Notes: generated from the letters alone by a model not told the origin. Shown: positions 311 to 17,136, counted from the first letter of the stretch. The stretch: DNA of 31,980 nt from Promethearchaeota archaeon Loki_b31 (GCA_005222975.1 NJBI01000040.1:1-31980), one strand, 5' to 3'. Program-made: numbers and translations.

Positions 311-1572
311 TTATATTTTTTTTGCGATTAAATCAATTATATCTATAACTGTAATCTTTTCTTGGACTTCAGTTTCCATTTCTTTATACGCGTCTCTAAA
401 ATTGCCAATACAGAATGGACAACTCGTTGTTAGTATTTCAGCACCAGTTTCTATTGCTTCTTGAATTCTTTCTTTTGAGATATCAAGAGCCAATTCGGGA
501 AATTGACTTTTTACGCCTCCTCCAGCTCCACAGCACCAGGCATTCTTACGGTTTCTTTTCATTTCTACTAGTTCAATTCCCGGAATTTTCGATAATAGTT
601 CTCTAGGTATTTCGTAAAGATCCATATGACGTCCTAAATGGCAAGGATCGTGCCATGTTATGATTTCCGCACCTTCTACGGATTTAAACGGTATTTCGTC
701 ATTACTTAACATCTCAACTAAAATTTCAGTAATATGCTTTATTTCAAACGGTAATTCCTCACCTAGTAATTCAGGATAATCCTTTTTCCAAGTTCTATAA
801 CATCCTGCACATGCTGTAAAGACTGTTTTAGCTCCCATATTCTTAAAAACTTCTATGTTATGCCTAATTATATCAGTTAGAGCCCTTTCATCGCCGATCC
901 TCAAGGCAACAGAACCACAACACCACTCGTTTTTAGACATTGCGATATCTTTTCCAGCAGCTTTCAAAATTTTCATCATACTTTTCAATGTATCTACTTG
1001 TCTTAATGGCATCGTGCACCCTCCAAAAAACACTAATTCTCCTTTGTCCTTGATTTCGGGAAATTCAGTTGTCCACTCGAATTTTTTTGCTTCTTCTTCG
1101 CCGTAAGGATTTCTCATAGTATCGTTGTTCATGTAATCAATTAACTTGCCGTGTCTATCAAGGGGAGCGAAGCCAGCTTCTATTAGATCTTTTCGTAACG
1201 CTTCCCATACTTTTACATGGTCGATCCATTTAGATGTATTAAGAACGATATACTCGTTTTGAGACATATGACACACTTCTGTGCAATTCCCGCATTCCAT
1301 GCATTCGTAAACTAATTCCGCGAGTTCTCTGGAAAGAGGAATCTGTCCTTCTAATATACTTTTAAGAACGTTCATCCTTCCTCGAGCAAAATAAATTTCA
1401 AAACCTCCTTCTTCCTTAGCTTCCTTAACCGGACAAGTTAAGTATCGCTCAACTGCCGGTCGAATGGCGTATCCGCAATCCCCACATCCCAAATGCCGAT
1501 CTAGGTATTCTAGAACCGTATACACGAAAAGATTGCTTTCCACTCTTCCCTTAAATGTTTTAATTCACTCAA
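311..1572 (-). CDS. Fe-S oxidoreductase (GlcF/HdrD-like, 4Fe-4S dicluster plus two CCG domains); predicted spliced gene join(1572..1520,1490..311), 410 aa
   Basis: CMECGNCTEVC, WCCG, CAGC, WHDPCHLGR, CCGAGGG and SCPFC motifs. TTG start at 1572 follows a GGTGA RBS and overlaps the upstream stop. Exon 1 reads MSELKHLREEWKAIFSC. Removing 1491-1519 gives CMGCGDC, matching LKELEKEIYKCIHCKAC in the paralog at 25298. Confidence 0.9.
1491..1519 (-). other. 29-nt bulge-helix-bulge (BHB) intron in a protein-coding gene
   Basis: Minus-strand RNA reads UUC-GUGU-AU^A-CGGUUCUAG-AAUAC-CUAGAUCG-GCAU-UU^G-GGA: 4-bp helix GUGU/GCAU, 3-nt bulges AUA and UUG, an intron hairpin and an exon stem. It contains an in-frame TAG, and its removal restores frame and the CxxCxxC motif. 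Confidence 0.85.
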
Positions 1573-3091
1573 TTTTACTATCACCCCAAAAGTTAAATTT
1601 TCCTCTACTTAGTATTGATTTTGGATCAAGTATATATTTTATTGACTTCATAAAATTATAGAATTCTGGCGTGTAAGCTCCAATATCGACCATCAGACGA
1701 GACATCAAATCTCCCATCATATACCACTGAACCCCGTTTTTTGTCACTCTTTCTAATAGCGATTTCCAGAGCTTTAAATTTATCTCATTGAGAAATTCAT
1801 GATTTTCTCCATCGAAATAACTTCCAAAACTAGTAAAACCACATGTTATTTCTACGTTATTTCCATCAACTAATACAATTGGTCCACTCCCTACAATCGG
1901 ACGACTTTTTGTAATATTTAAAATTTTTTGCATATCTTCATTATGTTCCATGTCCCATTGCTCGATATCGTTTAAAATCTCAGGATATAAATTGATTGGG
2001 CTCATACTTTCTGCTGTTAATGGTTCCATGCATGGAGACATCCCCCATAAGTTATGATAGAATTGCCAATGTCCTTGTTCGGTGTAATGCCATTTAGCGA
2101 TGTTCCCGTCAGAAATTTCTGAACCCAATTCTTCTGTCTTATTATTTAGCATAATTTCGTCTAATTGTTTTACTTTCTCCTCTAATTCTTTTTCCGAATT
2201 TGCTTCGATCGTATAAAAGATTATACCTCTCTTTTTTTTCAAGTTTTCCCAAAACGGAAACATTCCTTGGTCACAACCTATTCTAACAATAAGATCCATC
2301 ATATACATAACATCGTAAACATCAATTCCCTTTTGCCTGATTTCAGTCATTAATTTTGCCGAAACTTCTCTTTCTTTTCGAGGTAATTGAAATGTTTTAT
2401 ATGCTGCGAATTGTGGTCTTGGAAATATTTGTAATGAAACTTTAGTTTTCACGCCAAAAATTCCATTGTCACCACAGAAAAGCCCAGCTAAATCAGGACC
2501 ATTACCAAATCGATTGAAAGGGAATTTGGAGTACTTATTAGCCTGAGAACCCGTTTCAATGATATCGCCCGTCGGAAGTACTACCTCCAATGAAACCAAT
2601 TGATTAGTACATGCTCCATATTTCGCACACCCCCCTCCACCTACTGAATGATGAGATATTCCGCCTCCTACAGCCGCAGTCATTCCGGAACCCGGTCCCA
2701 TACAACCCGTATAAAGACCATAATGACACAAATATTCGTTTAATTTTCCCCAAGAAATTCCGGCTTCAACAGTTACGATAAGATTTTCTTGGTCTAAATT
2801 GATAATCTCGTTCATTCTTTTCATATCTAATACTATTCCACCATCCCCTATGGGTTTACTTCCACCGAATTCACAATCCCCACCTCCACGAGGTGTAACG
2901 GGGATATTTTCAATGTTTGCAATTTTAAGAATTTCTGCAATCTCTTGAGCATCTTTCGGTCTAATTACGATATCAGGGACTCCTTGCAATACGGGGTCTA
3001 CATTTCTTGAATACGCGTGCCGTACATAAATACTGTTAGAGATGAATTTCTCTTTAACGATATTTTCTAATTTTTTATATACTTCAGACAA
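1565..3091 (-). CDS. FAD-binding oxidoreductase (GlcD/D-lactate dehydrogenase, VAO/PCMH family)
   Basis: PDIVIRP...PRGGG, VEAG, LEVVLPTG, GPDL..LFCGDNGIFGVKT and C-terminal K..LDP..IL..GK. Start is probably TTG 3091 (GAGGT RBS; aligns with the paralog's MSEL...KLENIVKEK) rather than 3112. Confidence 0.9.
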   Translation of the reverse strand: MSEVYKKLENIVKEKFISNSIYVRHAYSRNVDPVLQGVPDIVIRPKDAQEIAEILKIANIENIPVTPRGGGDCEFGGSKPIGDGGIVLDMKRMNEIINLDQENLIVTVEAGISWGKLNEYLCHYGLYTGCMGPGSGMTAAVGGGISHHSVGGGGCAKYGACTNQLVSLEVVLPTGDIIETGSQANKYSKFPFNRFGNGPDLAGLFCGDNGIFGVKTKVSLQIFPRPQFAAYKTFQLPRKEREVSAKLMTEIRQKGIDVYDVMYMMDLIVRIGCDQGMFPFWENLKKKRGIIFYTIEANSEKELEEKVKQLDEIMLNNKTEELGSEISDGNIAKWHYTEQGHWQFYHNLWGMSPCMEPLTAESMSPINLYPEILNDIEQWDMEHNEDMQKILNITKSRPIVGSGPIVLVDGNNVEITCGFTSFGSYFDGENHEFLNEINLKLWKSLLERVTKNGVQWYMMGDLMSRLMVDIGAYTPEFYNFMKSIKYILDPKSILSRGKFNFWGDSKIE

Positions 3092-3147
3092 TTTTGTTAA
3101 ACCTCTTGACAATTTAATAAAAACAATTTATAATAGATTCTATAAAT

Positions 3148-3158
3148 TACTTAAATGT
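3148..3158 (-). promoter_or_regulatory. Putative TATA-box element ACATTTAAGTA
   Basis: The same 11-mer lies about 60 nt upstream of both paralogous FAD oxidoreductase starts (also at 5151-5161). Confidence 0.4.
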
Positions 3159-3222
3159 TTTCTAATTCTAATCAAATTAAAAATTTTTGATTTATTTATT
3201 TTCCAACTTACTCATTTTTTAA

Positions 3223-3537
3223 TCATTCTTCAATACATTTCCAAGAATCTACAATTATATGATATTCAGTAAATTTATCGCTAATTTTAACTTCAGGATT
3301 TTTGTAATCACTCTCTAGCTTCGTAACTTTCCCAGTTATTTCGATCTGACCTTCACAAGAAATCTGGTCCTTAGTATAAACTATAATTTGATAACTATCA
3401 GCTAAGTCGAAATAATTCATGTGTGGATGAGAATCAATAAGAGCTGTCATATGTTGCCAGATTACTTTAGAAATTCTCCCTTTTACTTTAACTATATTCC
3501 CCATGTTATTTTCAAGATAAATCCTTTTACTAAACAT
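3223..3537 (-). CDS. Hypothetical protein, possibly OB-fold-like beta protein
   Basis: 104-aa ORF co-oriented between the two oxidases, with beta-strand patterns VKVKGRI and IEITGKV. Confidence 0.6.
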   Translation of the reverse strand: MFSKRIYLENNMGNIVKVKGRISKVIWQHMTALIDSHPHMNYFDLADSYQIIVYTKDQISCEGQIEITGKVTKLESDYKNPEVKISDKFTEYHIIVDSWKCIEE

Positions 3538-3571
3538 TTTTTTTACTTCTTTTTCTAATGATATTTGCTTT

Positions 3572-5089
3572 TTATTTTTCTCCCCAGAAATTAAATTTTC
3601 CTCTGCTTAAAATGAACTCAGGGTCAAGCATTTTTTTTATAGATTTCATAAATTTTAAATATTCTGGCTGAAATGCTCCAATTTCAACCAAAAGTCTACT
3701 AAGAATATCGCCCATCATGTACCAAGTGACACCATGCTTAGTTATTCTTTCGAGTAAAGATTTCCAGAGTTTAAGATTAATTTCTTTAATAATTTCATAA
3801 TTTTTCCCATCAATGTAGCTTTCGAAGCTCGTAAATCCAGTAGTTAGTTCAACATTTTGATCTCCAATCAATATTATTGGTCCTGCCCCGGAAATCGGCC
3901 GCATCCCTGTAATCTCTAAAATCTGCTCCATTTCTTTAGAGTGTTCCATATCCCAAAGCTCAACATCCTTCAAAATTTTTGGATATGTGCTAATTGATGT
4001 ATGGCATTCTGCGTCTAAGGCCGTAAAACCAGGAACTAATCCCCATAAATTATGGGCGATTAACCAGTGCCCTTGTTCCTCGTAATGCCATTTCCCAATA
4101 TTACCATCTGCGATTTCGGGACCTAATTCTTCTGCTTTATTTCGTAGAAAAATCTTGTCTAATTGATTTACCTTTTCTTCCAGTTCCTTTTCAGAATTTG
4201 CCTCAACTGTATAAAAAAGGGTCCCTCTTTTTCTTTTCAAATTCTCCCACAATGGAAATATGCCTTTTTCAGTGCCAATTTTTACTAATAACTCCATAAA
4301 ATACATCGCATCGTAAATGTCAATTCCTCTCTGCCTAATTTCCGTAAAGATTTTTGCTGAGATTTCATCTGATTTTCGAGGCAATACAAATGTTTTATAA
4401 TTCGCAAATGGAGGTTTTGGAAATATTTGTAGTGAAGCTTTTGTTTTTACTCCAAAAATGCCGTTATCGCCACAAAAAAGACTTGCTAAGTCTGGACCGT
4501 TTCCAAATCTATTAAACGGAAACTTTGAAAACTTATTTGCTTGAGATCCCGTTTCAATAATTTCGCCTGTTGGTAAAACTACTTCCAAAGAAACTAATTG
4601 ATTTGTGCACGAACCGTATTTCGCACATCCACCACCTCCTACCGATTGATGTGAAATGCCTCCTCCCACTGACGCGGTTAGTCCGGAGCCTGGGCCTAAA
4701 CATCCAGTGTATAATCCAAAATGACATAAGTATTCGTTTAATTTTCCCCAAGAGATTCCTGCCTCAACGGTTACAATAAGATTTTCTTGATCTAAATTAA
4801 CTATATTATTCATACGTTTTAAGTCCAAGACAATGCCGCCATCTCCTATTGGTTTACTACCGCCAAATTCACAATCGCCACCACCACGAGGAGTAACGGG
4901 GATATTTTCGTCGTTTGCAACTTTTAAAATCTCAGAAATTTCTTTTGTATCTTTCGGCCTAATTACGATGTCAGGGACTCCTTGCAATACGGGGTCTACA
5001 TTCCTCGAATAGGCGTGTCTTACATAAAGACTGTTCGAGATATATTTCTCCTTAACAATATTTTCTAATTTTTGAAACAATTCTGACAA
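3572..5089 (-). CDS. FAD-binding oxidoreductase (GlcD-like), close paralog of 1565-3091
   Basis: Same motifs; the FAD-binding N-terminal half is nearly identical to the downstream paralog. Confidence 0.92.
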   Translation of the reverse strand: MSELFQKLENIVKEKYISNSLYVRHAYSRNVDPVLQGVPDIVIRPKDTKEISEILKVANDENIPVTPRGGGDCEFGGSKPIGDGGIVLDLKRMNNIVNLDQENLIVTVEAGISWGKLNEYLCHFGLYTGCLGPGSGLTASVGGGISHQSVGGGGCAKYGSCTNQLVSLEVVLPTGEIIETGSQANKFSKFPFNRFGNGPDLASLFCGDNGIFGVKTKASLQIFPKPPFANYKTFVLPRKSDEISAKIFTEIRQRGIDIYDAMYFMELLVKIGTEKGIFPLWENLKRKRGTLFYTVEANSEKELEEKVNQLDKIFLRNKAEELGPEIADGNIGKWHYEEQGHWLIAHNLWGLVPGFTALDAECHTSISTYPKILKDVELWDMEHSKEMEQILEITGMRPISGAGPIILIGDQNVELTTGFTSFESYIDGKNYEIIKEINLKLWKSLLERITKHGVTWYMMGDILSRLLVEIGAFQPEYLKFMKSIKKMLDPEFILSRGKFNFWGEK

Positions 5090-5150
5090 GTTTTAAACCT
5101 TAATTTTTATGTAAAAAAATTAAAAATAATATATATTAGAAAGCTTCAAC

Positions 5151-5161
5151 TACTTAAATGT
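5151..5161 (-). promoter_or_regulatory. Putative TATA-box element ACATTTAAGTA
   Basis: Identical to 3148-3158 and at a similar distance from the paralog's start. Confidence 0.4.
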
Positions 5162-5206
5162 AATTCAATTTACTATAATTTTCTATATAAGATTGGTTTT
5201 AAAGAA

Positions 5207-5788
5207 TTGAAATTAGGAAAAAAGTATTTAGCTATAATTTCAACCGTTATTGTTTTAATTATTCCAATATTTTTTGGAATTTACGCCGATTTTCTCACCG
5301 TAAGCGAGATTAGCTTAGAGATTATGTTATTATTATTGATAGGGCTTGTGCTTCTTTTAGTTTTAGGAAAAGTGATGGAGTTATTTTTGTACGGTAAAAA
5401 AAATAAAGAAAAAATGAAACAACACGATGTTATCAGGGCTCTTTTGAACGAAGAAGGTAAAAAAATTACAATATTCTTTTTTCCGTTGATTATGATAATA
5501 GAGGAATTAATTTTTCGCTATTATCTTATAGGGTTTCTATTAAACCATCTAAACTTAAAATTAATTTCAACAATTATGATTTCAAGTTTAATTTTTTCGC
5601 TATATCATGTTCATACATGGTTTAGATTTAAAGACTTAAAAATCCTGATTTCATATCTTATATTTTCATTTCTTTTAGGAATCTATAACGCCTATCTCCT
5701 TTTTACATTAGGAATTTTTTCGTGTATTATAGTTCATTTTAGCTTGGTCTTTATAATATGTTATAACTTATACAAAAAACTTTCTTAA
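5207..5788 (+). CDS. CPBP (Abi/Rce1-like) intramembrane glutamic endopeptidase
   Basis: EELIFR, FSLYH and a C-terminal His (IIVH) within multiple TM helices. Confidence 0.85.
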   Translation: MKLGKKYLAIISTVIVLIIPIFFGIYADFLTVSEISLEIMLLLLIGLVLLLVLGKVMELFLYGKKNKEKMKQHDVIRALLNEEGKKITIFFFPLIMIIEELIFRYYLIGFLLNHLNLKLISTIMISSLIFSLYHVHTWFRFKDLKILISYLIFSFLLGIYNAYLLFTLGIFSCIIVHFSLVFIICYNLYKKLS

Positions 5789-5844
5789 ATACACTCCTAT
5801 TATTTTAATATAAACAATTTGTTTATTCACTAAAAGTTGATATT

Positions 5845-6717
5845 ATGAAATTATTCTTCCGAGATATAACAGAAAAAGATATACCAGCAATCTTAGAAAT
5901 AAGTAAAGATATATGGAAAGGAGATGATTACATTCCCGAAGTTATAGAAAGGTGGTTAAATGAGGATGATAAATTGGTTTATGGTGCTTTTCTTGAAGGA
6001 GAAATGAAGGAATTAATTGGATTTGGAAGAGTAAAGATGTTTTCTAATGGAGTAGCTTGGTTAGAGGGTGGTCGAGTGAAGATAACTCATCAAAAGCAAG
6101 GAATAGGACGTGATTTGATGAAGTATGCAATAGATTACGCGATTCAAGCAGGTGCTAAGGTCGCTCAATACGATACATCTTCTAGAAATTTTGGTTCGAA
6201 ATCTTTAGCAAAATTTCACGGATTTAGAGAGAAAAAAAGGATGGAAGTCTTAGAATGTAAAATGAGCGAGTTAAAACTAAGTAAAAGTGATTTTTCTCAA
6301 ATACGGAAAATAACTAACGAAGAGGCAAAAAGAATTTATAAAAAAATGGATATTGGCCCTGGAGATGAATTAAATATTGGATGGTCGTATATACCTTTAT
6401 TAAATTTAGAGGATAAAAATTCTTTATGGTTGACTAATTCTGAAGCAATTTTACAAAAAATAGATATTAAGAGTCGTGCTCAACCAGAAAAACCTAGAGA
6501 AAATGAAGTATGGATCATAGTTTACGGTGATCCATTAGCAGCTTGTAAATTAATATCTTATACATTAAATTTCGAAATTGATAAATTTGGGATCGATTTA
6601 GTTGAGCTTTACTGTAAGGCTGAAGTAGTAAAGTATGTAAAAGAATTAGGGTTTAGAGATCCCTCCTGGGAAGACGAACCCGTAGCGGTTGTTCTTTATG
6701 AAAAAAAATTAAATTAA
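5845..6717 (+). CDS. GNAT-family N-acetyltransferase
   Basis: WLEGGRV...QKQGIG acetyl-CoA motif A, and N..S..LAKFHGF motif B. Confidence 0.85.
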   Translation: MKLFFRDITEKDIPAILEISKDIWKGDDYIPEVIERWLNEDDKLVYGAFLEGEMKELIGFGRVKMFSNGVAWLEGGRVKITHQKQGIGRDLMKYAIDYAIQAGAKVAQYDTSSRNFGSKSLAKFHGFREKKRMEVLECKMSELKLSKSDFSQIRKITNEEAKRIYKKMDIGPGDELNIGWSYIPLLNLEDKNSLWLTNSEAILQKIDIKSRAQPEKPRENEVWIIVYGDPLAACKLISYTLNFEIDKFGIDLVELYCKAEVVKYVKELGFRDPSWEDEPVAVVLYEKKLN

Positions 6718-6762
6718 AATACTAATTGATAGAAAATTAAAATAAAATAAAAAAAAAGTGAA

Positions 6763-8493
6763 TTACATCTTTCTTAAAGCTTTTTTATCGACTTTGCCTA
6801 TTGTTGTTAATGGTAATTGATCTAGAAATTCAATGAATTTAGGAACTTTATATTTTGCTAAATTGTCTTGAGCAAATTTTAAAATATCTGCTTTAACTTC
6901 TTCTGAAGCCTGGTAATCTTTCTTAAGCAGCACATACAATTTAACTATTTCTGAACCTGGACGATCTGAGTCCGGGATTCCAACAGTTGAACATAACTCA
7001 ATTGCGGGATGCTTATTCATCTTATCGTCAACTTCAACGCTAAAAACCTTAAAGCCGCTGACAATTATCATATCTTTTGTACGATCAACGATGGTAAGAT
7101 ATCCATCCTCATCCATCACACCAACATCACCAGAATAGAACCAACCGTCAACAAGCGCATTTTCTGTTTCTTTTGGTTTATTCCAATATCCTTTGAATAT
7201 TTGAGGGCCTTTTATGGCTATTTCTCCAGGTGTTCCTATAGGGACTTCCTTCTTTCGATCTGTAACATCTACTAGTTTTACTTCTGTGTTAGGAAATGGA
7301 ACCCCAACAGTTCCAACTTTCTTCTTTCCAAGGTAAGGGTTCATAGTTACTCCGGGAGACGCCTCCGTCATTCCATAGGCTTCTACAAGTTTCCCTTTGC
7401 CGACCACACCTTCAAATTCTTTTATGTTTTTGGTGGGGAAAGGAGCAGCGCCAGAGATGTAACCTATTACAGAACTTAAGTCTAATTTTTTGAATTTTCG
7501 ATTCTTTAAAAGCATCATGTAAAGAGTTGGAACGTTGTACATCAACGCTATTTTACCTTCATATTTTTTCATTAACCCAATCATATAATTTGTGTCACGT
7601 GGGTCCGGAACTAAAATCTGAGCACAACCCATAAAAGCACTCTGAAGGCAAAATTGTAAACCCGCCAAATGGAAAAAAGGAAACCCGGACATATAAATGT
7701 CTTCACCGGGATTAGAACCCGGTTCAAACCAATGAGCTACTATTTGCATTATTTGTATTAAATTTCGATGAGTTAATATTGCCCCTTTAGGGGGGCCAGT
7801 CGTTCCACCAGTGTATTGAAGTAATAAAACATCTTCCGGACCTATTTCAACATTAGGCGATTTATCGTTTGGATATTTCTCCACAATATCTTTATAGTCA
7901 AAATATTTTATACTATTGATTGGCTCAACTTTTCCATAGGGAATTTTTCCTATTTTAATTAATTGTTCTTTCATAGCGGGTTCTAAATCCAAAATATCAG
8001 CTACATTAGTAGTAATCACAATTCTTACATCTGTGTCCCCCGTTTGGAGCGCTTCCTTTACTTTCTCTTCGTAAAAAGAGTCAAGGGTAATTATCGCAAC
8101 CGCTCCGCTGTCTTTTAGCTGATACCTGATTTCATTTGGTTGTAATAAAAAATTCATCCCTGAAGCAGCACATCCAGCGTAAAAAGTTCCAAATAGCGCT
8201 ACGATAAATTGGGGAAGATTTGGTAAGTTTATTACGACATGTTCTCCTTTTTTTACGCCATTCTCAACAAGAAAGTTAGCAAAACTGTTAATATATTTTT
8301 CTGCTTCTTTAAAAGTCACACAAGAACCTTGGAAATCGTAGCATAAACTATTAGGATACTTATTAACCGTACGTTTCATCATTTCTGCTACAGAATAATA
8401 CTCTAGATCAATTTTTGGTTTTACATGAGCATCGTAAGATTTAAGCCATATTTTTTCCGAATATGGACTCTTTTTGGCATTTTCATTTGTCAT
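6763..8493 (-). CDS. fadD: Long-chain fatty acid--CoA ligase (AMP-binding)
   Basis: YTGGTTGPPKGA, EAYGMTE, SGDVG, DRTKDMII and GKVDKK motifs. Confidence 0.9.
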   Translation of the reverse strand: MTNENAKKSPYSEKIWLKSYDAHVKPKIDLEYYSVAEMMKRTVNKYPNSLCYDFQGSCVTFKEAEKYINSFANFLVENGVKKGEHVVINLPNLPQFIVALFGTFYAGCAASGMNFLLQPNEIRYQLKDSGAVAIITLDSFYEEKVKEALQTGDTDVRIVITTNVADILDLEPAMKEQLIKIGKIPYGKVEPINSIKYFDYKDIVEKYPNDKSPNVEIGPEDVLLLQYTGGTTGPPKGAILTHRNLIQIMQIVAHWFEPGSNPGEDIYMSGFPFFHLAGLQFCLQSAFMGCAQILVPDPRDTNYMIGLMKKYEGKIALMYNVPTLYMMLLKNRKFKKLDLSSVIGYISGAAPFPTKNIKEFEGVVGKGKLVEAYGMTEASPGVTMNPYLGKKKVGTVGVPFPNTEVKLVDVTDRKKEVPIGTPGEIAIKGPQIFKGYWNKPKETENALVDGWFYSGDVGVMDEDGYLTIVDRTKDMIIVSGFKVFSVEVDDKMNKHPAIELCSTVGIPDSDRPGSEIVKLYVLLKKDYQASEEVKADILKFAQDNLAKYKVPKFIEFLDQLPLTTIGKVDKKALRKM

Positions 8494-8671
8494 TTTTTAT
8501 CAGATTTTAATATTATTTTAATATAATTAACGAAATTCGGTAATAACTTTATTGTTAGATCAATATTTAAAATTAATCTTCTGATATTGCCAATAAATAA
8601 CAATAATAATTCTAGGAAGAATAATATAAAAAAAAGAAATTAAAAAAATTAAATTAAATTATTTTGTATTG

Positions 8672-9193
8672 TTATGCTTCTACTAAATTCGCTTTATATC
8701 CCTTTCCACAATAAACGCAGAAAGCAAATCCTGTTTCAGCTAATTGTTCAAGCATTTTTTCGGTATATTGACTTCCGCATTCACTACAGTATACGGCAAT
8801 AGGCTGTACAGTTTCAACTTCCTTTAGCATTGGTTTGATGATCTCAGGCTCTACATAAGTTTGGGGCTGATTAAATTTTTGTTCTTCGCTAATAGAAGCT
8901 TTCTTAACAGGCTTAGGTTTTCCAGAAATATCATAATATATTTCTTCAAATAATTTGTATAAGCCTACAAAAATACCCTTTAATAGAAGATAAACTCCTT
9001 TTAATATGTAATAAATTAAATAGCCGACTCCCTTTAACACAAAATATACGATAAGTACTGCTAGAATTAACGACGCTACAGTTCCAATTATCATTAAAAC
9101 TTGAGCAGGGATAGGCATACTTAAAAATCATGTCATAAATTCTTGCCAATATAATAAAGCTTGATCCGAAATTTGGTTCCAATTATTATTCAC
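8672..9193 (-). CDS. Membrane protein with C-terminal double CxxC zinc ribbon; in-frame TGA at 9128-9130 in the likely N-terminus
   Basis: TM segment plus CSECG...CVYCG. An AAGGTGG RBS precedes GTG 9193, which is in frame with the called ORF (ATG 9118) across a single TGA. Confidence 0.65.
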
Positions 9194-9330
9194 TAATTAC
9201 CACCTTTTTAACTATTTTATTTAATGTTTTATTTTTAATTAAAAGGAGTTTGAAGTGGATTATAAAAAATTTGGAGTCCAGTTTTTAAATTTATTTTAAA
9301 AAGAGTAAAATTGAAAGATATTATTAAACA

Positions 9331-10743
9331 TTAAATTTCGGTATTTTTATTCATATTTTTATTTGATCTACTAAAATCATACAAAAATTTGAACGCCTTT
9401 ATTGCGTGGCTTATCTGAGTCATTATTGGAATTTTATATTTATACGAATGTTTTAAAAAATATTCAAGAACCCAGCGGGAACCAAAAACACAAGTAATAA
9501 CGGGTTTATTGAGCTTGGTTGAAAGGTTTTTCATTTCCCTCAAGTGTGGTGTTATAGGTATAGAAAAGGTTTCTAAAGGTTTTTGAGGGACAGCGAAAAT
9601 ATGTAATAAGGCATCAACATTCTCATCGTTTAGTATCGCTTTTAATGATTTACTAAAAGTCATAAATATAGAAGGTCCCAAGTCGACGGGATTCTTCAAA
9701 GAAGTCCAATTGGGTGAGATAGATCTCATTTGTTGAATGGTAGACTCATTTAAAACTGCAAGTTTTAGGCCTAGTCTTTCAATTTCGTCGCATGCTAATA
9801 TACCTAAACTTCCAGAGGATGTAATTATTGCGATGTTCTTTCCTTTAGGTAAGGGTTGAGTAGCAAATACTTGAGCGATATCAAACATCTCGTAAAAATT
9901 ATTTACGCGATAGATACCGGAATATTGTTTGAAAATTGCATCGTAAATTTTGTCGTCTCCAGCGATAGAGCCAGTGTGACTCTTTATTGCTTTAGAACCA
10001 ATTTCGCTGCGACCATTTTTTAGAATTAAAACAGGTTTAGTTAATTTTCTTAATATTTCGATTAACTTTGGTCCTCGTTTCACGCCTTCTAAATAAACTG
10101 TTATTACATTAGTATTCGTATCTTTCTCAAGGTATTCCAGCATATCAATCTCATCAACATCTACTTTATTTCCAAGAGTTATAGTCTTCGAAAAACCAAT
10201 TTTCTGACTTGCTGACCATTCAACAAATATATTTCCTAACACACCTGACTGTGCGATAATAGAAATGGTTCCCCCTTCTATAGATTGATTAAAATCTATT
10301 TCTGTGGTTGTAAATTTGTTATTAAAATTAGTAACACCCACACAATTAGGGCCAATTATTCTTACATCCGAATTTTTAGCGATTACCCCTATATCTTCTT
10401 GGATTTTAACAAATTTCTCGATACCCGTTTCAGCAAAGCCCGCAGTTTCTATAATTATTCCTTTAACTCTTTTTTTGACAGAATCCTTCACTATTTGAAG
10501 CACATTTTCATTCCTTACTACGATAATTGCTAATTCGATATCATCTGGTATATCATTAATATTTTTGAACACTTTATGACCAAAAATAATATCTTTGCTT
10601 ATATTTACGGGATATGTTTTAAAATCCGAATTCAATAAATAATATGTCATAGTATAACCAAATTTGAAAGTATCTGAAGCACCTATAATAGCAATGGATT
10701 TGGGGTTAAAGAAAACATCCATATCAGTTATTTGATCGCTCAT
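9331..10743 (-). CDS. ADP-forming acyl-CoA synthetase, alpha subunit (CoA-binding)
   Basis: FFNPKSIAIIGAS, AGFAE, IIGPNCVG, AQSG, LGNKVDVDE, SHTGSIAG (phospho-His) and NPVDL motifs. Confidence 0.9.
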   Translation of the reverse strand: MSDQITDMDVFFNPKSIAIIGASDTFKFGYTMTYYLLNSDFKTYPVNISKDIIFGHKVFKNINDIPDDIELAIIVVRNENVLQIVKDSVKKRVKGIIIETAGFAETGIEKFVKIQEDIGVIAKNSDVRIIGPNCVGVTNFNNKFTTTEIDFNQSIEGGTISIIAQSGVLGNIFVEWSASQKIGFSKTITLGNKVDVDEIDMLEYLEKDTNTNVITVYLEGVKRGPKLIEILRKLTKPVLILKNGRSEIGSKAIKSHTGSIAGDDKIYDAIFKQYSGIYRVNNFYEMFDIAQVFATQPLPKGKNIAIITSSGSLGILACDEIERLGLKLAVLNESTIQQMRSISPNWTSLKNPVDLGPSIFMTFSKSLKAILNDENVDALLHIFAVPQKPLETFSIPITPHLREMKNLSTKLNKPVITCVFGSRWVLEYFLKHSYKYKIPIMTQISHAIKAFKFLYDFSRSNKNMNKNTEI

Positions 10744-10912
10744 AATTTAGTTTGTCCCTTTGAAAAGATTATATAAAAGATTATAATTTATTGAACTTAA
10801 AATTTAGTTTTAAAGGTTGAAACTATATTGTTTTCGAAATTAGGGGTATTTAAATTCTAAGATGTAGATAGATTGTAAGACGATAAAATCAATTTATTTT
10901 TTTAAAAATTGT

Positions 10913-11482
10913 ATGGAAGCTATAACAATTAATAGATATGTTCAAGTTATTTGTCCTGTGTGTAAAGCACAGAACACGGTACGGATTCCTAAGTCCGTAA
11001 TTAACCAAGCTTCTCAACTAACTACCGTCTCTGTTCCTAAAGGTGAAATTTGTCAACATCACTTCCAATTATTTATAGACAAAAATTTTAAAATACGGGG
11101 ATACCAAAAAGTCGATTTTCAATTAGACTCAGAGAATGACAAAAAGAAGAAAAATCTAAGATATAATTACAAAGATAATTTTGTAAATAGTTTAAAGCTA
11201 TACAAATCTTCAGTATCAAAGGACAATTCTATCAAAAATGTACCAAAAAAGCCATATAATAAAAAAGAAACAAAAAAAATCGAAGAGAGCTTTAATAGAA
11301 AAAATAATAGAACATTACAAGATATTTACGAAGAATTTTGGGAATTTATCAGTGATAACAATGAAACTTTTCAAAAATTTATTGATAAAGACAAAAAAAG
11401 AAGGTTTCTTTTGAAAATGAATGAATTAACACCAGTTTCGGATCACAATTTATTACAAACAGTTGACAAAACTGTGCAGTAA
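10913..11482 (+). CDS. Hypothetical protein with N-terminal Zn-binding domain
   Basis: CPVC...CQHHFQLFIDKNFKIRGYQKVD; this resembles a domain I associate with Lokiarchaeia hypothetical proteins. Confidence 0.7.
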   Translation: MEAITINRYVQVICPVCKAQNTVRIPKSVINQASQLTTVSVPKGEICQHHFQLFIDKNFKIRGYQKVDFQLDSENDKKKKNLRYNYKDNFVNSLKLYKSSVSKDNSIKNVPKKPYNKKETKKIEESFNRKNNRTLQDIYEEFWEFISDNNETFQKFIDKDKKRRFLLKMNELTPVSDHNLLQTVDKTVQ

Positions 11483-11574
11483 ATTTTTAAGAAAATTCCT
11501 CTAAATATCATTAATCATTTATTATTTTTCAAATCTTCAAATTTATAGATTACTTCTTGTAAGAGCTTAACATA

Positions 11575-12726
11575 ATGGGCATAGGCGGATTAATACAAAA
11601 AGAATTTGGTAGAATTAAATCTGATAAAAGAACTTTAATTCTATTATTTGCAATACCAATAATCTTAATTGTCATTTTTGGGCTTACTACGGGTGTTGGA
11701 CCTATGAAATTCTTTACCTCTGCGATTATAACTCTCGATGAAATGCCTACTTACGATAATTTCCCGTCAAATTCTTCTCAATACGACGATATTTTTATCT
11801 CGATTATGGAACAGAATACCACAACGTGGGATCTTTATCGATACTATAATAGTACTAACAGTGGAGAATATAACGAAGCATTTGATCGATGTTTTAATTT
11901 ATTAAAAAATGAACTAATAGATGTTTTTATTGTACTCCCTAATAACTTCTCAGAATCTGTAGCAAATAAAACTAACCCAATATTAATCTATTATATTGAT
12001 GGCTCTGATCTAAGCGCTGTAGGTGCAATTGAGGTAGCTCTCCAAGAACCCCTCGCTCTATTTCGCGTTGAAATTAATATGCTGGAAAATTTTACAATAA
12101 TGGTACCTCACCTTGAATTTGGAGTCCCTTCATGGGAATCTCAATTGCTCAATTATTCATTAGCTCTGATCCTACCAATAATAATAATTGGAACTACGAT
12201 GAATTTAACATCTCTAACAATTGTTTCTGAGGGCCCACTTCCGCGAATGCTTATTACTCCTACGGCAAAAAGAGATATAATCCTTAGCAAACTAATTGCA
12301 AATACTGTAATAATGATAATGCAAGCTACAGAAATATTCGTAATGACGTCATTTTTCGGTTTATATAGTTTAGGCTCGTTATTTAATTTTTATCTAGTTT
12401 TAATAATGATTGGCTTTAGTGGAATAGCCATAGGTTTATGTATCTCTGCAATTAGCCCAACAGAACAAGGAGCTAATCAAATGTACTTGATGCTGTTTAT
12501 TATTATCATAATTTTTTCAGGAACTATTATGCCGCCTGAGTCTTTGGGGAGTGCGCGATTTCTTTCAGACATGCTTCCTTTAAGTCACGCTTCAGTCCTC
12601 ATAACAGATATAACATTAAGAGGTTTATCGTTAAATTTAGAGCATGTTCTTTCTATTCTTTTAATTTCATTAGTTTTTCTAGCAATTGCTTATATCGCAT
12701 ATAAGTTTAAAAAAGTGGAGGTGTAA
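11575..12726 (+). CDS. ABC-2 type transporter permease
   Basis: QKEF..IKSDKRTL N-terminus, an extracellular loop, RMLITP....IILSK, and FSG..MP...LPLSH. Confidence 0.9.
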   Translation: MGIGGLIQKEFGRIKSDKRTLILLFAIPIILIVIFGLTTGVGPMKFFTSAIITLDEMPTYDNFPSNSSQYDDIFISIMEQNTTTWDLYRYYNSTNSGEYNEAFDRCFNLLKNELIDVFIVLPNNFSESVANKTNPILIYYIDGSDLSAVGAIEVALQEPLALFRVEINMLENFTIMVPHLEFGVPSWESQLLNYSLALILPIIIIGTTMNLTSLTIVSEGPLPRMLITPTAKRDIILSKLIANTVIMIMQATEIFVMTSFFGLYSLGSLFNFYLVLIMIGFSGIAIGLCISAISPTEQGANQMYLMLFIIIIIFSGTIMPPESLGSARFLSDMLPLSHASVLITDITLRGLSLNLEHVLSILLISLVFLAIAYIAYKFKKVEV

Positions 12727-12729
12727 AGA

Positions 12730-13914
12730 ATTAAACGGAGCAATTTTAAGAATAATATATTTCGATTAGCCAGACAAATAAAGAAAGAATTTCAACTCTT
12801 ATGGACTGATAAATTTAATATTTTTATAGCTCTAATAGTTCCACCTCTTGTAGTTGCCTTATTAGGAGTAACCTCTAACATTTCAGGTTCTTCTTTAAAC
12901 CCTATAGATTGCGTTGTGGTTTCTTACGATTCAAATACATTTATTAATGAAAATAATTTTACCGAGTCAAATTTAGATGATTACAATATGAAATATGTTG
13001 AGGCTGTAAACAACTCGAATTTATTAAATCTTATACAATTTTTTAACGCTTCTGAAGAGATTTATGCGATGGAAACGGCTAGAAATTATCTAACTTCAAA
13101 GAAAATTAAGGTTATTATCGCAATTCCAGTTGATTTTTCAGAATTACTAATCTGGGGGTATCCCGGTTTAATAGAATGTATATCAGATTCATCAGATTTT
13201 AAAAAAATTCAAGAAAATTTGAATGCTGTTTACGATTCTATTAAAATTTTTGTTAATCAAAATAATTTGACCCCTCAATTTGAAGTTCGTGGTTTTGAAG
13301 AATTTTCGATACCTGAAGGCTATAGTTTTAAATATAATTATAACATGGTACTTGTTCTCTCTTTTATGGTTATAGGCGTTGGGATGGTCTCAACAATTTT
13401 AATAATAGTTCAAGAAAAACCAATTGCGAGATTATTGCTCACTCCCGTTAAAAGGGCTGAGATTCTATCTGCAAAATATATCACTTATACAAGCATTTTG
13501 ATTATTCAAGATCTTTCACTTGTTATTAGTGCTTTAGCATTTGGGTTATATGTAGTAGGTTCATTGTTCGATTTATTTCTCGCATTATTTATTTTAGGAT
13601 TTACCGGCCTTGCTATAGGTATTTTTATTAGCACATTTAGCAAAACTAAAACTCAAGCAAACCAATTATTTTTTGCTACTTTTCTAGTTTTAATTCTTCT
13701 AAGTGGAATATTTATTCCTATTGATGCCATGCCGATTTACTTACAAATTATAGCATACGCGCTTCCGTTATCTCATGGAAGTCCATTAATAACAGGAATA
13801 ATCACTAAGGGAAAATCAGTATTTGGTTTTGACTTTTTTACTTTATTAGGCGTTAGCATTTTTCTTGTAATTACTTCCTTCATAATATTTCAAAGAAGGA
13901 AATATGAGGTGTAA
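12730..13914 (+). CDS. ABC-2 type transporter permease (probable ATT start at 12730)
   Basis: Frame is open from 12727. The extension encodes QIKKEFQLLWTDKFNIFIALIVPP (TM1, homologous to the first permease). GGAGGTG RBS lies 6 nt before ATT. RLLLTPV and LSGIFIP motifs. Confidence 0.85.
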   Translation: MKRSNFKNNIFRLARQIKKEFQLLWTDKFNIFIALIVPPLVVALLGVTSNISGSSLNPIDCVVVSYDSNTFINENNFTESNLDDYNMKYVEAVNNSNLLNLIQFFNASEEIYAMETARNYLTSKKIKVIIAIPVDFSELLIWGYPGLIECISDSSDFKKIQENLNAVYDSIKIFVNQNNLTPQFEVRGFEEFSIPEGYSFKYNYNMVLVLSFMVIGVGMVSTILIIVQEKPIARLLLTPVKRAEILSAKYITYTSILIIQDLSLVISALAFGLYVVGSLFDLFLALFILGFTGLAIGIFISTFSKTKTQANQLFFATFLVLILLSGIFIPIDAMPIYLQIIAYALPLSHGSPLITGIITKGKSVFGFDFFTLLGVSIFLVITSFIIFQRRKYEV

Positions 13915-14121
13915 AATGGAGATTTCTAATCCTTCTGATAATTCAATGGTACTAGTGGAAAACTTAAATGTCACATTTGGGAAAAACCAAATTGTGCATG
14001 ATGTATCTTTTAATGTGAAGCAAGGTGAAATCATTGGTATGTTTGGAATTTCAGGCGCTGGAAAAACAACAATTATTAGGGTACTAACATGCCAAATTGA
14101 AAAGAAAAATTGGAATGGAAA
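13903..14121 (+). repeat. Left copy of a ~219-bp imperfect direct repeat (RBS plus 5' end of the ABC ATPase gene)
   Basis: Collinear with 16055-16273 at an offset of 2152. 14000-14114 is identical to 16152-16266, and 13903-13919 is identical to 16055-16071. Confidence 0.95.
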
Positions 14122-14128
14122 AAGATAA
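13916..14128 (+). pseudogene. Truncated 5' copy of ABC ATPase (Walker A only)
   Basis: GISGAGKTT is present, then homology ends at about 14121 and a stop follows. Confidence 0.9.
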
Positions 14129-14198
14129 AGATACTCCTGAAGTGTATCGATTACTAATAGAAATGATAGAAGATCTAAAACAAACAGCAAAAAAATAA
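14115..14198 (+). pseudogene. 27-codon fragment paralogous to part of the ORF at 14212
   Basis: EKDKDTPEVYRLLIEMIEDLKQTA aligns with DKDKGTPEVYQLLLEKIEQIKRSA; DNA at about 14121-14188 resembles about 14278-14345. Confidence 0.7.
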
Positions 14199-14211
14199 GA
14201 AAGTGAACTAA

Positions 14212-14748
14212 TTGGAAGATAAAGAAGATCAGGAAGAATTTAGAAAAAGAATTAAAGATTTAGTAGATAGATTGGATAAAGATAAAGGTACTCCTGAAGT
14301 TTATCAACTATTATTAGAAAAAATAGAACAAATAAAAAGATCAGCTATCTCGAAAATAAACAAAGCATCTCGAAACGAAAAGGTTATTATTGGACTTGTA
14401 TATATAATTCGGGAATACAATATGTTAAGATTTGATCCTAAATATCCTTTTGAAAAAGATCATGTTCTAGAGGAGATTGACGCATTGTATAAATTAATCT
14501 ACAAGGAATTGCAAAAACCAAATCCCTATATTCCTGATACATGGGATATAGATGAAAAGAAAAGGATACTTAACAATATGAGAGAGGTTTTGGGAATAGA
14601 AAATATGAACAAATTTTATAAGAAATACAAAATTCATAGGTTAGTTCGTTTAAAACTAGATATGAGAAAAGGTTTTCAATACTATGCGTATTGTTGGATA
14701 ATCGCATTTATTATTTTACTTATAATTTTTTTGGCTCAGAGGTTATAA
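14212..14748 (+). CDS. Hypothetical tail-anchored membrane protein
   Basis: 178-aa charged helical ORF with a single C-terminal hydrophobic segment. Confidence 0.65.
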   Translation: MEDKEDQEEFRKRIKDLVDRLDKDKGTPEVYQLLLEKIEQIKRSAISKINKASRNEKVIIGLVYIIREYNMLRFDPKYPFEKDHVLEEIDALYKLIYKELQKPNPYIPDTWDIDEKKRILNNMREVLGIENMNKFYKKYKIHRLVRLKLDMRKGFQYYAYCWIIAFIILLIIFLAQRL

Positions 14749-14848
14749 TAGGCTTAAATGGTGTTAAAACTTATTTGTCTATTGCATACTTTTTTATATT
14801 AATAGTTTAAGGAATATATTTTTAAATAAAAATCCGAATCCTTAAGTT

Positions 14849-15217
14849 ATGACGATAACATATTCTCGAAAAATAAAAAATAAAATTCGAAAATCAATAA
14901 TAGTATTTTCAATTACATTTGCTGTTCTTTTTTCAGGATTTATTCCTCTTATTGATCTTCCCGAAGGAAATATTCGTGAAGAACCAAATGTGTGGTTTAA
15001 TCCTCATTTATCTGATTTTTAATATGAATGTACTGTAACTACAAATAATACTTTTAACGCTTATAACAAGTCTTATATTATATGTAAAATTCAAAATACG
15101 GATTACTCAAAGTTTTGGTTTAATGGAACACAATACGATGTCAGTTATGGAATGAATATTTTACCTGTTGATTTTAGATTTGGATTGTGTAGAGATATTA
15201 AGGTCGTTAATAAGTGA
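14849..15217 (+). pseudogene. Remnant of a secreted or surface protein gene
   Basis: ATG, then a basic and hydrophobic signal-like N-terminus (KIRKSIIVFSITFAVLFSGFIP), a premature TAA at 15020-15022, and a continuing frame (…FWFNGTQYDVSYGMNILPVDF) that runs into the next ORF. Confidence 0.6.
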
Positions 15218-15986
15218 AAATTGTGTTTGTATATGCTTAAACTGTCATGGTGTCTTGCATTCAACTTTTAATTCTAATATCGAAGAAATACTTAAAGGTA
15301 TATTTACTGAAAATGAAATAAATAAATTTTCTTCAGATGTAAATCTAATTTTAAGTAGAATAAACAACGCGATTATAAGTTTCAAGTTTAAGTTAGAAAC
15401 AATTAAATTTATATCTCCTTTAAAATATGCAATTAATCAAAATGATATTTGGAAAATAAAAATGTTGAAGATATTTTCATATTTGAAACAAAGTGAGTTT
15501 AGAACAAAAGATATTATGAGTTTATGTAACAATAATTACTCTAATGCTTATGAAATAATAAGTAAACTAGTTGAGAAAGAATTCTTACTTCGTGTAAAAA
15601 GAGAGGGTTTTACACAAAACTATTATAAATTTTCAGAAGAGGGAATTAAAAGAGTTAAGGAGATACAACAAACATATGAGTTACACGAAGGTTTGATATC
15701 TTTAGACAATGAACAAATTATTTCTACTCAAAGAATGGAGAATGATGATATACTTGAAATATATCCTAAAATCATAAAGAGTATCATAAAAACTAAGGGA
15801 TATAATGAGTTTACAGTAAAAGAATTAGCAGAAGCCATTGGAAAAAGCACAGTTAACATATCCAGAAATTTAAGAGAAAAATTGATACCAAATGGTTATG
15901 TAAAAGTTAAGATTTCTTCTATTATTACAAAAAAATGTGGAAGTACAAAAGTTTATTATTTAACCGACAAAACAGAGATTCTATAG
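15168..15986 (+). pseudogene. N-terminally truncated HNH-endonuclease-like protein with two winged-HTH domains
   Basis: ENCVCICLNCHGVLH matches the C-terminal half of an HNH motif (N-x3-LC-xx-CH-x3-H). wHTH-like segments FRTKDIM…ISKLVEKEFL and FTVKELAEAIGKSTVNISRNL. No convincing start, and the first His is missing. Confidence 0.6.
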
Positions 15987-16054
15987 AATCATTTTTATTA
16001 ACTTATTATTGTATTATATATTATAAATTGAAGAATATAATATTTATTAGAATG

Positions 16055-16273
16055 TATGAGGTGTAAAATGGGTACATCCAAATCTTTAGAGGAAGTAATG
16101 GTCTTAGTAGAAAACTTAAATGTCACCTTTGGGAAAAACCAAGTTGTGAACGATGTATCTTTTAATGTGAAGCAAGGTGAAATCATTGGTATGTTTGGAA
16201 TTTCAGGCGCTGGAAAAACAACAATTATTAGGGTACTAACATGCCAAATTGAAAAGAAAAATTGGAGTGGAAA
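16055..16273 (+). repeat. Right copy of the ~219-bp direct repeat
   Basis: Collinear with 13903-14121 at an offset of 2152. Confidence 0.95.
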
Positions 16274-17136
16274 TGTTGTAGTTACGAGTTTAAATCCTAG
16301 TAAAAAAAAAAATCATTCAAAAATTCTAAGTAATATTGGATACGTTCCTCAACTAGAACTATTGAATTTATATTTTGAATTAGACCCTTTAAAAAATGTT
16401 GATGTGTTTACATCTACTTATGGAATGAACAAAAAAAAGGCAAGGGAAACTGCTGAAAAGCTGTTTAAAATATTGGACATTCCTGAGGACACTTGGAAAA
16501 AAAGGGTATCGCGGATGAGCGGGGGCGAAAAGAAGCGTCTTTCAATGGCTATTGGTTTAATACATAATCCTGATGTATTATTCCTTGATGAACCGACTAC
16601 ACTATTAAGTTGTTTAAACTAATAGAGTTTTAGGTGTCGATGCATCGAAACGCTATGATATACTCAGTTATCTAGAGAAGTTAAACCAGCATTTAAACAC
16701 AACCATGTTTATTATTACACACGATTTAGAAGCGGCACTAATATGTGGTAAAACTGCGATATTAAGGCAGGGGAAATTACTCGAATTTGATACACCTCAA
16801 AAATTAATATCTTCTTTGCCAAGTGGGGGTTTAGTAGCGAGAATTTCAATCGAAAATTTAGATCAAAAAGTAATAAAAACGGTTCAAAAATTTGATTCAG
16901 TCAAAAATGTATTACGCGTTGGAAATGAAACTATCGAAGTATTAATGGAAAATTTTGAGAATAACTTACCTAAATTAATGAAATATTTATTTGCGAATGA
17001 CGTTAAAATTTATTCAATGAGTAGGGATATTGCCAATTTTAGAAGGTTCTTTCAGATTAGAATCCAAGAGGAAGAAGAAAAAGAAAAGGAAGTAGATATT
17101 TCTGAAATAAATAGTGAAGGTGGAATTACATCTTAA
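16068..17136 (+). CDS. ABC transporter ATP-binding protein; predicted spliced gene join(16068..16600,16632..17136), 345 aa
   Basis: Walker A GISGAGKTT, signature MSGGE and Walker B LFLDE lie in exon 1. Removing 16601-16631 gives DEPTTGVDASKR and joins the frame carrying the ITHD H-loop (ORF 16705-17136). Confidence 0.92.
16601..16631 (+). other. 31-nt BHB intron in a protein-coding gene
   Basis: RNA reads ACC-GACU-AC^A-CUAUUAAGUU-GUUUA-AACUAAUAG-AGUU-UU^A-GGU: 4-bp helix GACU/AGUU, bulges ACA and UUA, a 9-bp intron stem and exon stem ACC/GGU. It contains in-frame stop codons. Confidence 0.9.

Follow-up and report, generated by a model that had tools for sequence, protein, structure and literature searches.

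The window analysed here, a stretch of 31,980 nucleotides from Promethearchaeota archaeon Loki_b31 (GCA_005222975.1, NJBI01000040.1:1-31980; contig C98 in our numbering), carries two unrelated protein-coding genes, one for an iron-sulphur (Fe-S)/CCG protein, an oxidoreductase subunit, and one for an ATP-binding cassette (ABC) ATPase, each of which is interrupted by a short insert with bulge-helix-bulge (BHB) geometry. The genome as a whole (G000) is metagenome-assembled and comprises 3.5 Mb in 99 contigs with about 6% contamination. A first-pass annotation of the window, made from the sequence alone, had tentatively placed the organism among the Asgard archaea, and the nearest named records are in fact metagenome-assembled genomes of Promethearchaeia/Promethearchaeota. 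It had also described the two inserts, one of 29 nucleotides (nt) and one of 31 nt; on recomputation their positions and their common architecture were recovered unchanged. The Fe-S/CCG gene and its partner gene are arranged as follows.

1520..1572, minus strand: exon 1 of the Fe-S/CCG gene, 17 codons and 2 nt, TTG start
1519..1491, minus strand: 29-nt BHB intron; central helix GUGU/GCAU, bulges AU^A and UU^G, loop AAUAC, UAG in frame
311..1490, minus strand: exon 2 of the Fe-S/CCG gene, from the G of a Met codon through GCGDCGY... to the stop
1565..3112, minus strand: FAD-binding oxidase, GlcD-like, with FAD_binding_4 and FAD-oxidase_C; partner gene directly upstream of the Fe-S gene

Exon 1 codes for SELKHLREEWKAIFSC followed by the AU of a Met codon, and its TTG start (1572) overlaps the stop of the upstream FAD-oxidase gene. 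Exon 2 contains a Fer4_8 (4Fe-4S dicluster) domain and two CCG domains. At the junction exon 1 ends with AU (1521-1520) and exon 2 starts with G (1490), which together give the Met codon AU/G. The long Fe-S frame at 311-1543 is without the first Cys of its CxxCxxC motif; the 17-codon frame, which runs from TTG 1572 to the AU at 1520 and ends ...AIFSC, supplies this Cys once 1519..1491 is excised, and the spliced reading SC-M-GCGDC is then the same as in intronless orthologs. Exon 1 is colinear and near-identical with the N-termini of 16 intronless orthologs, and the minimum-free-energy fold of the insert recovers the helix-bulge-helix. The spliced RNA is predicted to read ...UCGUGUAU joined to GGGAUGU... 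at this junction.

The ABC ATPase gene lies on the other strand.

16056..16600, plus strand: exon 1 of the ABC ATPase gene, from Walker A to LDEPT and the AC of a Thr codon
16601..16631, plus strand: 31-nt BHB intron; central helix GACU/AGUU, bulges AC^A and UU^A, loop GUUUA, UAA in frame
16632..17136, plus strand: exon 2 of the ABC ATPase gene, from the A of the Thr codon through GVDASKRYD... to the stop

This gene appears as two open reading frames (ORFs), 16056-16622 and 16705-17136, the first of which is ended by the stop within the intron. Exon 1 ends with AC (16599-16600) and exon 2 starts with A (16632), which gives the Thr codon AC/A. Excision of 16601..16631 restores the Walker B/D-loop as LDEPT-T-GVDAS, just as it is found in intronless orthologs, and the predicted RNA junction is ...CCGACUAC joined to AGGUGUC.... 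The junction peptides predicted for the two spliced products are ...AIFSCMGCGDCGY... and ...LFLDEPTTGVDASK....

Both inserts have a 4-bp central helix, two 3-nt bulges and an intron hairpin of 8-9 bp with a 5-nt loop. The exon-exon (outer) helix comprises 3 bp in both cases and, being that short, assigns the inserts to the relaxed form of the BHB. Further claims of the first-pass annotation are borne out here: each junction divides a codon after its second position, each insert disrupts the reading frame and also holds an in-frame stop (UAG in the Fe-S gene, UAA in the ABC gene), and both inserts fall in conserved motifs, as excision restores the first Cys of CxxCxxC in one gene and LDEPTTGVD in the other. 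The same is true of the cut it had assumed after the second nucleotide of each bulge, because at both sites exactly these cuts produce the reading of the intronless orthologs, with which the junctions are colinear. An Rfam and tRNA scan of the window gave no match. Group I and group II introns possess a ribozyme core of hundreds of nucleotides, and a self-splicing intron of either group was ruled out, since the inserts measure only 29 and 31 nt and are without an Rfam match.

We consider it very probable that both inserts are BHB mini-introns of protein-coding transcripts which are removed by EndA and RtcB. In the pre-mRNA a helix would form between the four exon-1 nucleotides that precede the 5' bulge and the final four nucleotides of the intron ahead of the 3' bulge, so that two 3-nt bulges would be flanked by the intron hairpin on one side and by a short exon-exon helix on the other. 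The heteromeric tRNA-splicing endonuclease EndA would cut after the second nucleotide of each bulge, and RtcB would join the exons and probably circularise the intron. Splicing would in this way restore the frame and an essential motif, i.e. the first Cys of CxxCxxC in the one protein and the Walker B/D-loop in the other.

The enzymes needed for such a reaction are encoded in the genome. EndA is represented by two paralogous genes on contigs C13 and C79, whose products are about 200 aa long and both possess the two endonuclease domains. For one product the best match is 3p1z_B (E 3e-34), a chain of a tRNA-splicing endonuclease and presumably the catalytic subunit of the Aeropyrum pernix enzyme, and for the other it is 1a79_A, presumably the enzyme of Methanocaldococcus jannaschii. 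RtcB is present as well (562 bits, contig C84). Judged by their number, the two EndA paralogues would fit an (alpha-beta)2 enzyme. Asgard EndA has been described as an (alpha-beta)2 type with an L1 loop, and a broad substrate range is attributed to enzymes bearing this loop (Kaneta et al., PMC5829648). ARAGORN finds only 14 tRNA genes in the 3.5 Mb, a small number which fits the heavy tRNA intron load of some Asgard lineages (bioRxiv 10.64898/2026.10.13.758758); that study does not treat mRNA and leaves the arrival route of the introns open.

BHB-like structures can arise by chance, and the first-pass annotation had named chance fits as a danger to its own reading. When all (position, length) pairs of G000, about 7.5e8 in number, were put through a loose BHB filter (4/4 central pairs, intron stem of at least 3, outer helix of at least 2), 190,270 of them passed, i.e. 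a fraction of 2.5e-4. Up to 60 nt away from the ABC break, 2192 excisions restore the frame and leave no stop; a single one of these passes, and it is the one that is colinear with the orthologs that have no intron. The 15 simple introns, which occupy six sites, together give 60 central-helix cells, of which 58 are paired (17-30 when the 3' partner is slid); for the first two outer pairs the figure is 29 of 30 (6-20 when slid). The first central pair of the Fe-S intron varies among relatives between G-U, G-C, C-G, U-G and U-A; the exon side of this pair falls on the wobble position of a Ser codon, and the intron side changes accordingly.

All 18 introns examined have the BHB geometry and the 5' bulge A-N^A in common, and every one of them opens with an A. 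The 3' bulges of orthologous introns at the same sites include AA^G, AG^G, AU^G, AA^U and UG^A, and the stem-opening pairs differ too. The splice-junction consensus that the two genes had been said to share is therefore kept as regards geometry and 5' bulge, but not as a literal sequence: a search of the 3.5-Mb genome with the literal consensus returns these two sites only (0-1 matches in shuffles), and because nothing else matches and the orthologous introns vary in 3' bulge and stem-opening pair, it has to be regarded as overfitted.

For the comparison with relatives, 60 related genomes were searched with each second exon and the loci were then compared. The Fe-S intron occurs in ten of 26 orthologs, always after the same AU, and the remaining 16 are unbroken through SCMGCGDCG. 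Its lengths are 29, 29, 30, 30, 30, 31 and 34 nt, plus 56, 61 and 61 nt; beyond G000 itself, six genomes have an insert of 29-34 nt and three one of 56-61 nt. The ABC intron is present in four of 27 orthologs (G000, G019, G032 and G007), each time with 31 nt at the same nucleotide, and 23 informative orthologs are unbroken through DEPTTGVDAS, including the closest ABC relatives G005, G017 and G021 with 91-92% protein identity. Between intron-bearing and other alleles the ratio of nonsynonymous to synonymous substitution rates (dN/dS) is 0.07-0.19, with dS saturated; the exons of intron-bearing alleles are without further frameshifts or stops, and the 17-codon exon 1 of the Fe-S gene is conserved among relatives. 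A contig of a second and possibly not independent DNA run spans the Fe-S insert without a gap. The homologous inserts come from different species that were assembled separately, which makes an assembly artefact very unlikely, and the shared sites among relatives together with the purifying selection on the exons argue in the same way against pseudogenes. Judged from these comparisons, both inserts are real.

Several observations weigh against the removal of these inserts from RNA. The single true metatranscriptome run is without read cover at either intron, and cleavage and ligation in vivo are for this reason something that we infer. In G000 no stop closes the exon-2 frame of the Fe-S gene within the intron and as far back as a GTG at 1543, so that even unspliced mRNA could in principle yield a protein that is complete but for the first Cys. 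Furthermore, exon 1 of this gene begins with TTG where relatives have ATG, and with outer helices of 3 bp and a central helix of 3/4 in several related introns we are dealing with relaxed substrates. Finally, an ORF-only test over the whole genome, which compared the true cut with cuts shifted by 1-2 nt under four filter sets, gave no excess of frame-restoring BHB fits. This can be explained by chance fusions at the boundaries of neighbouring genes, which swamp the few real introns; the strict register of the test also misses relaxed BHBs, and its null result is silent on the two sites in the window. Nor was any bulge sequence enriched among the frame-restoring matches genome-wide.

A contig without the ABC intron, from a run labelled RNA-Seq that is probably DNA, was considered as a spliced product and rejected, since its synonymous differences match G017 and make it the allele of another strain. 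At window positions 16570-16639 a cold-seep contig (run X18) has the intronless ABC allele of a related strain, which indicates that both kinds of allele occur in similar sediments.

If EndA and RtcB act on these transcripts only inefficiently or under certain conditions, the inserts could be switches, the unspliced mRNA giving rise to a truncated or cluster-deficient protein. The open exon-2 frame from GTG 1543, the position of the introns in cofactor- or ATP-binding motifs and the relaxed BHBs with their 3-bp outer helices would agree with this. The presence and absence of the introns among close relatives, however, argues against a conserved regulatory role, and as the sequence holds no sign of regulation we regard a switch as quite unlikely.

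It could also be assumed that insertions of a small hairpin element have inactivated the genes, leaving pseudogenes or split genes whose inserts are never removed from RNA. Each insert disrupts the frame and holds a stop. Neither insert is present in the closest relatives (G005, G017 and G021), so that the disruptions in G000 could be recent, and the ABC gene is preceded at a short distance by a 1.9-kb insertion and the duplicate of a gene fragment. But the ABC and Fe-S sites are occupied in four and ten genomes, respectively, with saturated dS, a dN/dS of 0.07-0.19 and no further frameshifts or stops, the 17-codon exon 1 of the Fe-S gene is conserved, and at six unrelated sites the ends of the inserts agree exactly, to the single nucleotide, with BHB cut sites. 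An inactivation is accordingly very unlikely.

In gene 60 of phage T4 the ribosome bypasses a short gap with a hairpin and an early in-frame stop, and the present inserts, which resemble this gap in all three respects, could likewise be skipped by programmed translational bypassing or frameshifting without any RNA splicing. Cases of cbf5 have once been confused with frameshifting, as noted by Yokobori 2009 (PMC2738675). Yet the junction codons are split 2/1 (AU/G and AC/A), matching take-off and landing codons flank neither insert, and at one site inserts as short as 29 nt and as long as 61 nt are found. Moreover, bypassing would not need a 4-bp helix and two 3-nt bulges that are kept through sequence change, which leaves this explanation highly improbable. 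Assembly or sequencing artefacts, which a metagenome-assembled genome of 99 contigs with about 6% contamination might suggest, are practically out of the question given that other species, assembled separately, have homologous inserts at these very sites and that a contig of the second DNA run spans the Fe-S insert.

BHB splicing of mRNA, as favoured here for the two genes of the window, would concern further genes of the same genome. A motif-independent census, in which neighbouring frame fragments had to align end to end with one paralogue, revealed five more BHB inserts of 30-32 nt in G000, each at exact Pfam-profile continuity.

Contig C58: thiolase-family gene, insert of 30-32 nt, Pfam-profile continuity
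Contig C16: thiolase-family gene, insert of 30-32 nt, Pfam-profile continuity
Contig C99: DeoC/LacD aldolase, insert of 30-32 nt, Pfam-profile continuity
Contig C8: FGGY kinase, insert of 30-32 nt, FGGY_N 3-79 then 77-245
C67:32408-33189 (L146:109-890, minus strand): proteasome alpha subunit, 32-nt hairpin insert, profile 1-99 then 100-188

The central helix is paired 4/4 in three of these five inserts and 3/4 in two. To the latter belongs the proteasome alpha gene, which is split between ...YTQYGG and IRPFG... and has a relaxed BHB with a 9-bp exon-exon helix. As the census sees only genes with paralogues and exons of at least 45 codons, the total of seven represents a lower bound, and we conclude from the sequences that at least seven genes of a few thousand in G000 appear to carry such introns. 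The proposal of the first-pass annotation that mRNA splicing is common in this genome is supported to the extent that introns are found in at least seven genes; these are, however, seven out of a few thousand, and their splicing is predicted. A scan for broken genes that fit the BHB was productive when based on paralogues, while the literal consensus added none. In addition, an aIF2-gamma-like match in G000 begins at position 43 of the profile; a gene broken in the P-loop would be compatible with this.

Genes with a different kind of interruption were also seen. On contigs C17, C23, C90 and C61 of G000 proteins of about 650 aa contain a single in-frame TGA at the same position (...DDC(S/G)I-TGA-I.GP...); they are paralogues of C87:42827-44846 (minus-strand coordinates), and one paralogue has a sense codon at the TGA position. 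Several shorter ORF pairs are split by a lone TGA after ...(V/A)(A/V)G. ARAGORN reports a tRNA-SeC on contig C59, and the lone in-frame TGAs look like selenocysteine codons rather than broken genes.

The distribution of the introns among relatives points to a turnover. In a tree of the 26 Fe-S second exons at least six changes of intron state are needed, five of them forced by well-supported branches. G000 belongs to a fully supported Fe-S clade with three intronless genomes, and since the ABC intron is also absent from those three, either G000 gained both introns recently or its sisters lost both. The introns are therefore polymorphic within the genus and must have been gained and/or lost at the DNA level. 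ABC introns are identical at 25-29 of 31 positions between genomes whose exon dS is saturated. In G000, ABC exon 1 shares 85-88% identity with the closest relatives over its last ~100 nt, as against 88-98% over most of the remaining gene and 82% over the first 150 nt; by eye, most of the changes fall into the final ~35 nt ahead of the intron and the ~8 nt that follow it.

Two of the intron-bearing Fe-S loci contain an additional gene.

L140:2333-4135 (G034): HNH ORF of 600 aa with two HNH_3 modules and helix-turn-helix (HTH) domains
L141:2020-4383 (G007): HNH ORF of 787 aa with two HNH_3 modules and HTH domains

These ORFs, which share 51% identity, are situated between the FAD-oxidase gene and the intron-bearing Fe-S gene. 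At all 16 intronless Fe-S loci the two genes abut and an HNH gene is missing. A homolog with 35% identity is encoded in G000 at C46:5111-7543, and among the introns identified here none was found adjoining it.

The introns can also be stacked. At the 5' end of the Fe-S gene in G029 (L050) and G019 (L054) an intron of 31 nt directly follows one of 30 nt and uses the 3' end of the latter as its own 5' helix. Because the BHB of the 30-nt intron forms only after the 31-nt intron is gone, removal would be sequential with the 31-nt intron first, and this is the sole solution that was found for the 30 + 31 nt arrangement. In G004 (L041) stacked introns of 30 and 26 nt with weaker helices are seen.

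The patchy introns, the HNH neighbours and the similarity of the ABC introns would fit a DNA-level spread of the homing type. Against such a spread stands the fact that eight of the ten intron-bearing Fe-S loci are without a nuclease gene, and in the window none was found beside either intron. Tentatively, and with less confidence than in the splicing itself, one may think of the ~30-nt BHB introns of Promethearchaeia as a mobile DNA-level population that invades conserved motif-coding sites of ordinary genes, is sometimes helped by free-standing HNH endonucleases encoded beside the invaded allele, moves between species faster than the host genes diverge and is able to stack, in a lineage where splicing of mRNA by the tRNA machinery would be routine.

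The surroundings of the ABC gene in the window differ from those of its relatives. Upstream of exon 1 the following features are found.

12916-13914: ABC-2 permease gene, upstream of the ABC ATPase gene
13904..14128, plus strand: duplicate leftover of the ABC 5' end, 74 codons, which stops where the inserted segment begins
14129..16055, plus strand: inserted segment of ~1.9 kb between the ABC-2 permease and ABC ATPase genes
14212-14748: ORF within this segment, no family
15168-15986: ORF within this segment, tandem winged-helix DNA-binding protein

The duplicate at 13904-14128 is near-identical to the ABC 5' end of the intronless relative G005. At the 20 intronless loci for which the permease gene was recovered no counterpart of the 1.9-kb segment was found in this position, and within the segment itself no nuclease domain was detected. 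The tight permease-ATPase junction is lost at all four intron-bearing ABC loci and recovered at these 20 intronless loci; the intervening DNA differs among the four. Duplicated 5' gene fragments were not seen at the other intron-bearing loci. The duplicate of roughly 220-265 bp, consisting of the permease 3' end and the ABC 5' end, resembles the outcome of a single-crossover integration of a circular element. Downstream, the ORF at 17214-20321 (1035 aa) combines a prenyltransferase/squalene-cyclase-like alpha-alpha toroid domain with an ABC ATPase domain. This unusual fusion (about 1065 aa in relatives) is conserved downstream of the intron-bearing ABC gene.

Among the known systems the cbf5 introns of Desulfurococcales and Sulfolobales (Watanabe 2002, Yoshinari 2006, Yokobori 2009, PMC2738675) are most similar. 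They are likewise short, lie in coding sequence with a relaxed BHB at their borders, are cut between the second and third bulge nucleotides, for which a hetero-oligomeric EndA was proposed, and show lineage-specific presence and absence. Pre-mRNA splicing was confirmed for cbf5 only, and introns in other genes were merely predicted (Yokobori 2009, PMC2738675). While cbf5 splicing is confirmed by cDNA, it is inferred for the genes studied here. These belong to the Asgard phylum and comprise metabolic, transport and proteasome genes, several per genome, with turnover within one genus, stacked introns and HNH genes beside some alleles. In contrast to the cbf5 intron at a catalytic Asp codon, the hosts in the window are a CCG Fe-S protein and an ABC ATPase, which suggests the same mechanism but another intron family. 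In full-text literature searches we found no report of BHB introns in Asgard protein-coding genes. The mechanism would thus be that of cbf5, and scale, host genes, turnover, stacking and HNH neighbours are new relative to the searchable papers.

The tRNA introns of Asgard archaea (bioRxiv 10.64898/2026.10.13.758758) share with the present ones the motif, the predicted enzymes, a similar small size and repeated gains, and G000 also appears to have mostly interrupted tRNA genes (14 by ARAGORN). Here, however, the substrate would be mRNA, the outer helix is coding sequence and the frame depends on exact cuts.

Unconventional cytoplasmic splicing is known from the HAC1/XBP1 mRNA, which is processed by Ire1 and a tRNA ligase, RtcB in animals. 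Common features are a protein-only cleavage at mRNA stem-loops, a ligation of the RtcB type and a change of frame, but there the nuclease is Ire1 and not EndA, the cleavage sites lie in two 7-nt loops and splicing is part of a regulated stress response. A link to HAC1/XBP1 or to the origin of introns would therefore be an analogy only, which implies no homology of intron or nuclease. As for a possible mobility, free-standing homing endonucleases of phages are said, in work of Bonocora and Shub and of Zeng et al. from 2009, to collaborate with group I introns that lack an endonuclease. In that system too an endonuclease gene is found beside the intron-bearing allele, the site is a conserved coding one and the introns are patchy among close relatives. 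The element considered here is a 30-nt BHB intron and not a ribozyme, and an HNH gene accompanies it at only two of ten Fe-S loci and nowhere in the window.

In one Asgard genome at least seven ordinary genes, including that of a proteasome subunit, would thus need mRNA splicing. Such genes come out of gene callers in pieces or truncated, which would have consequences for the proteomes and metabolic reconstructions of Asgard archaea. The question of how introns arrived in Asgard tRNAs extends to mRNAs, for which intronless and intron-bearing alleles can be compared base by base. While this says nothing direct on spliceosomal introns, these genes may serve as a natural system of mRNA splicing by proteins alone, in those prokaryotes that are most closely related to eukaryotes.

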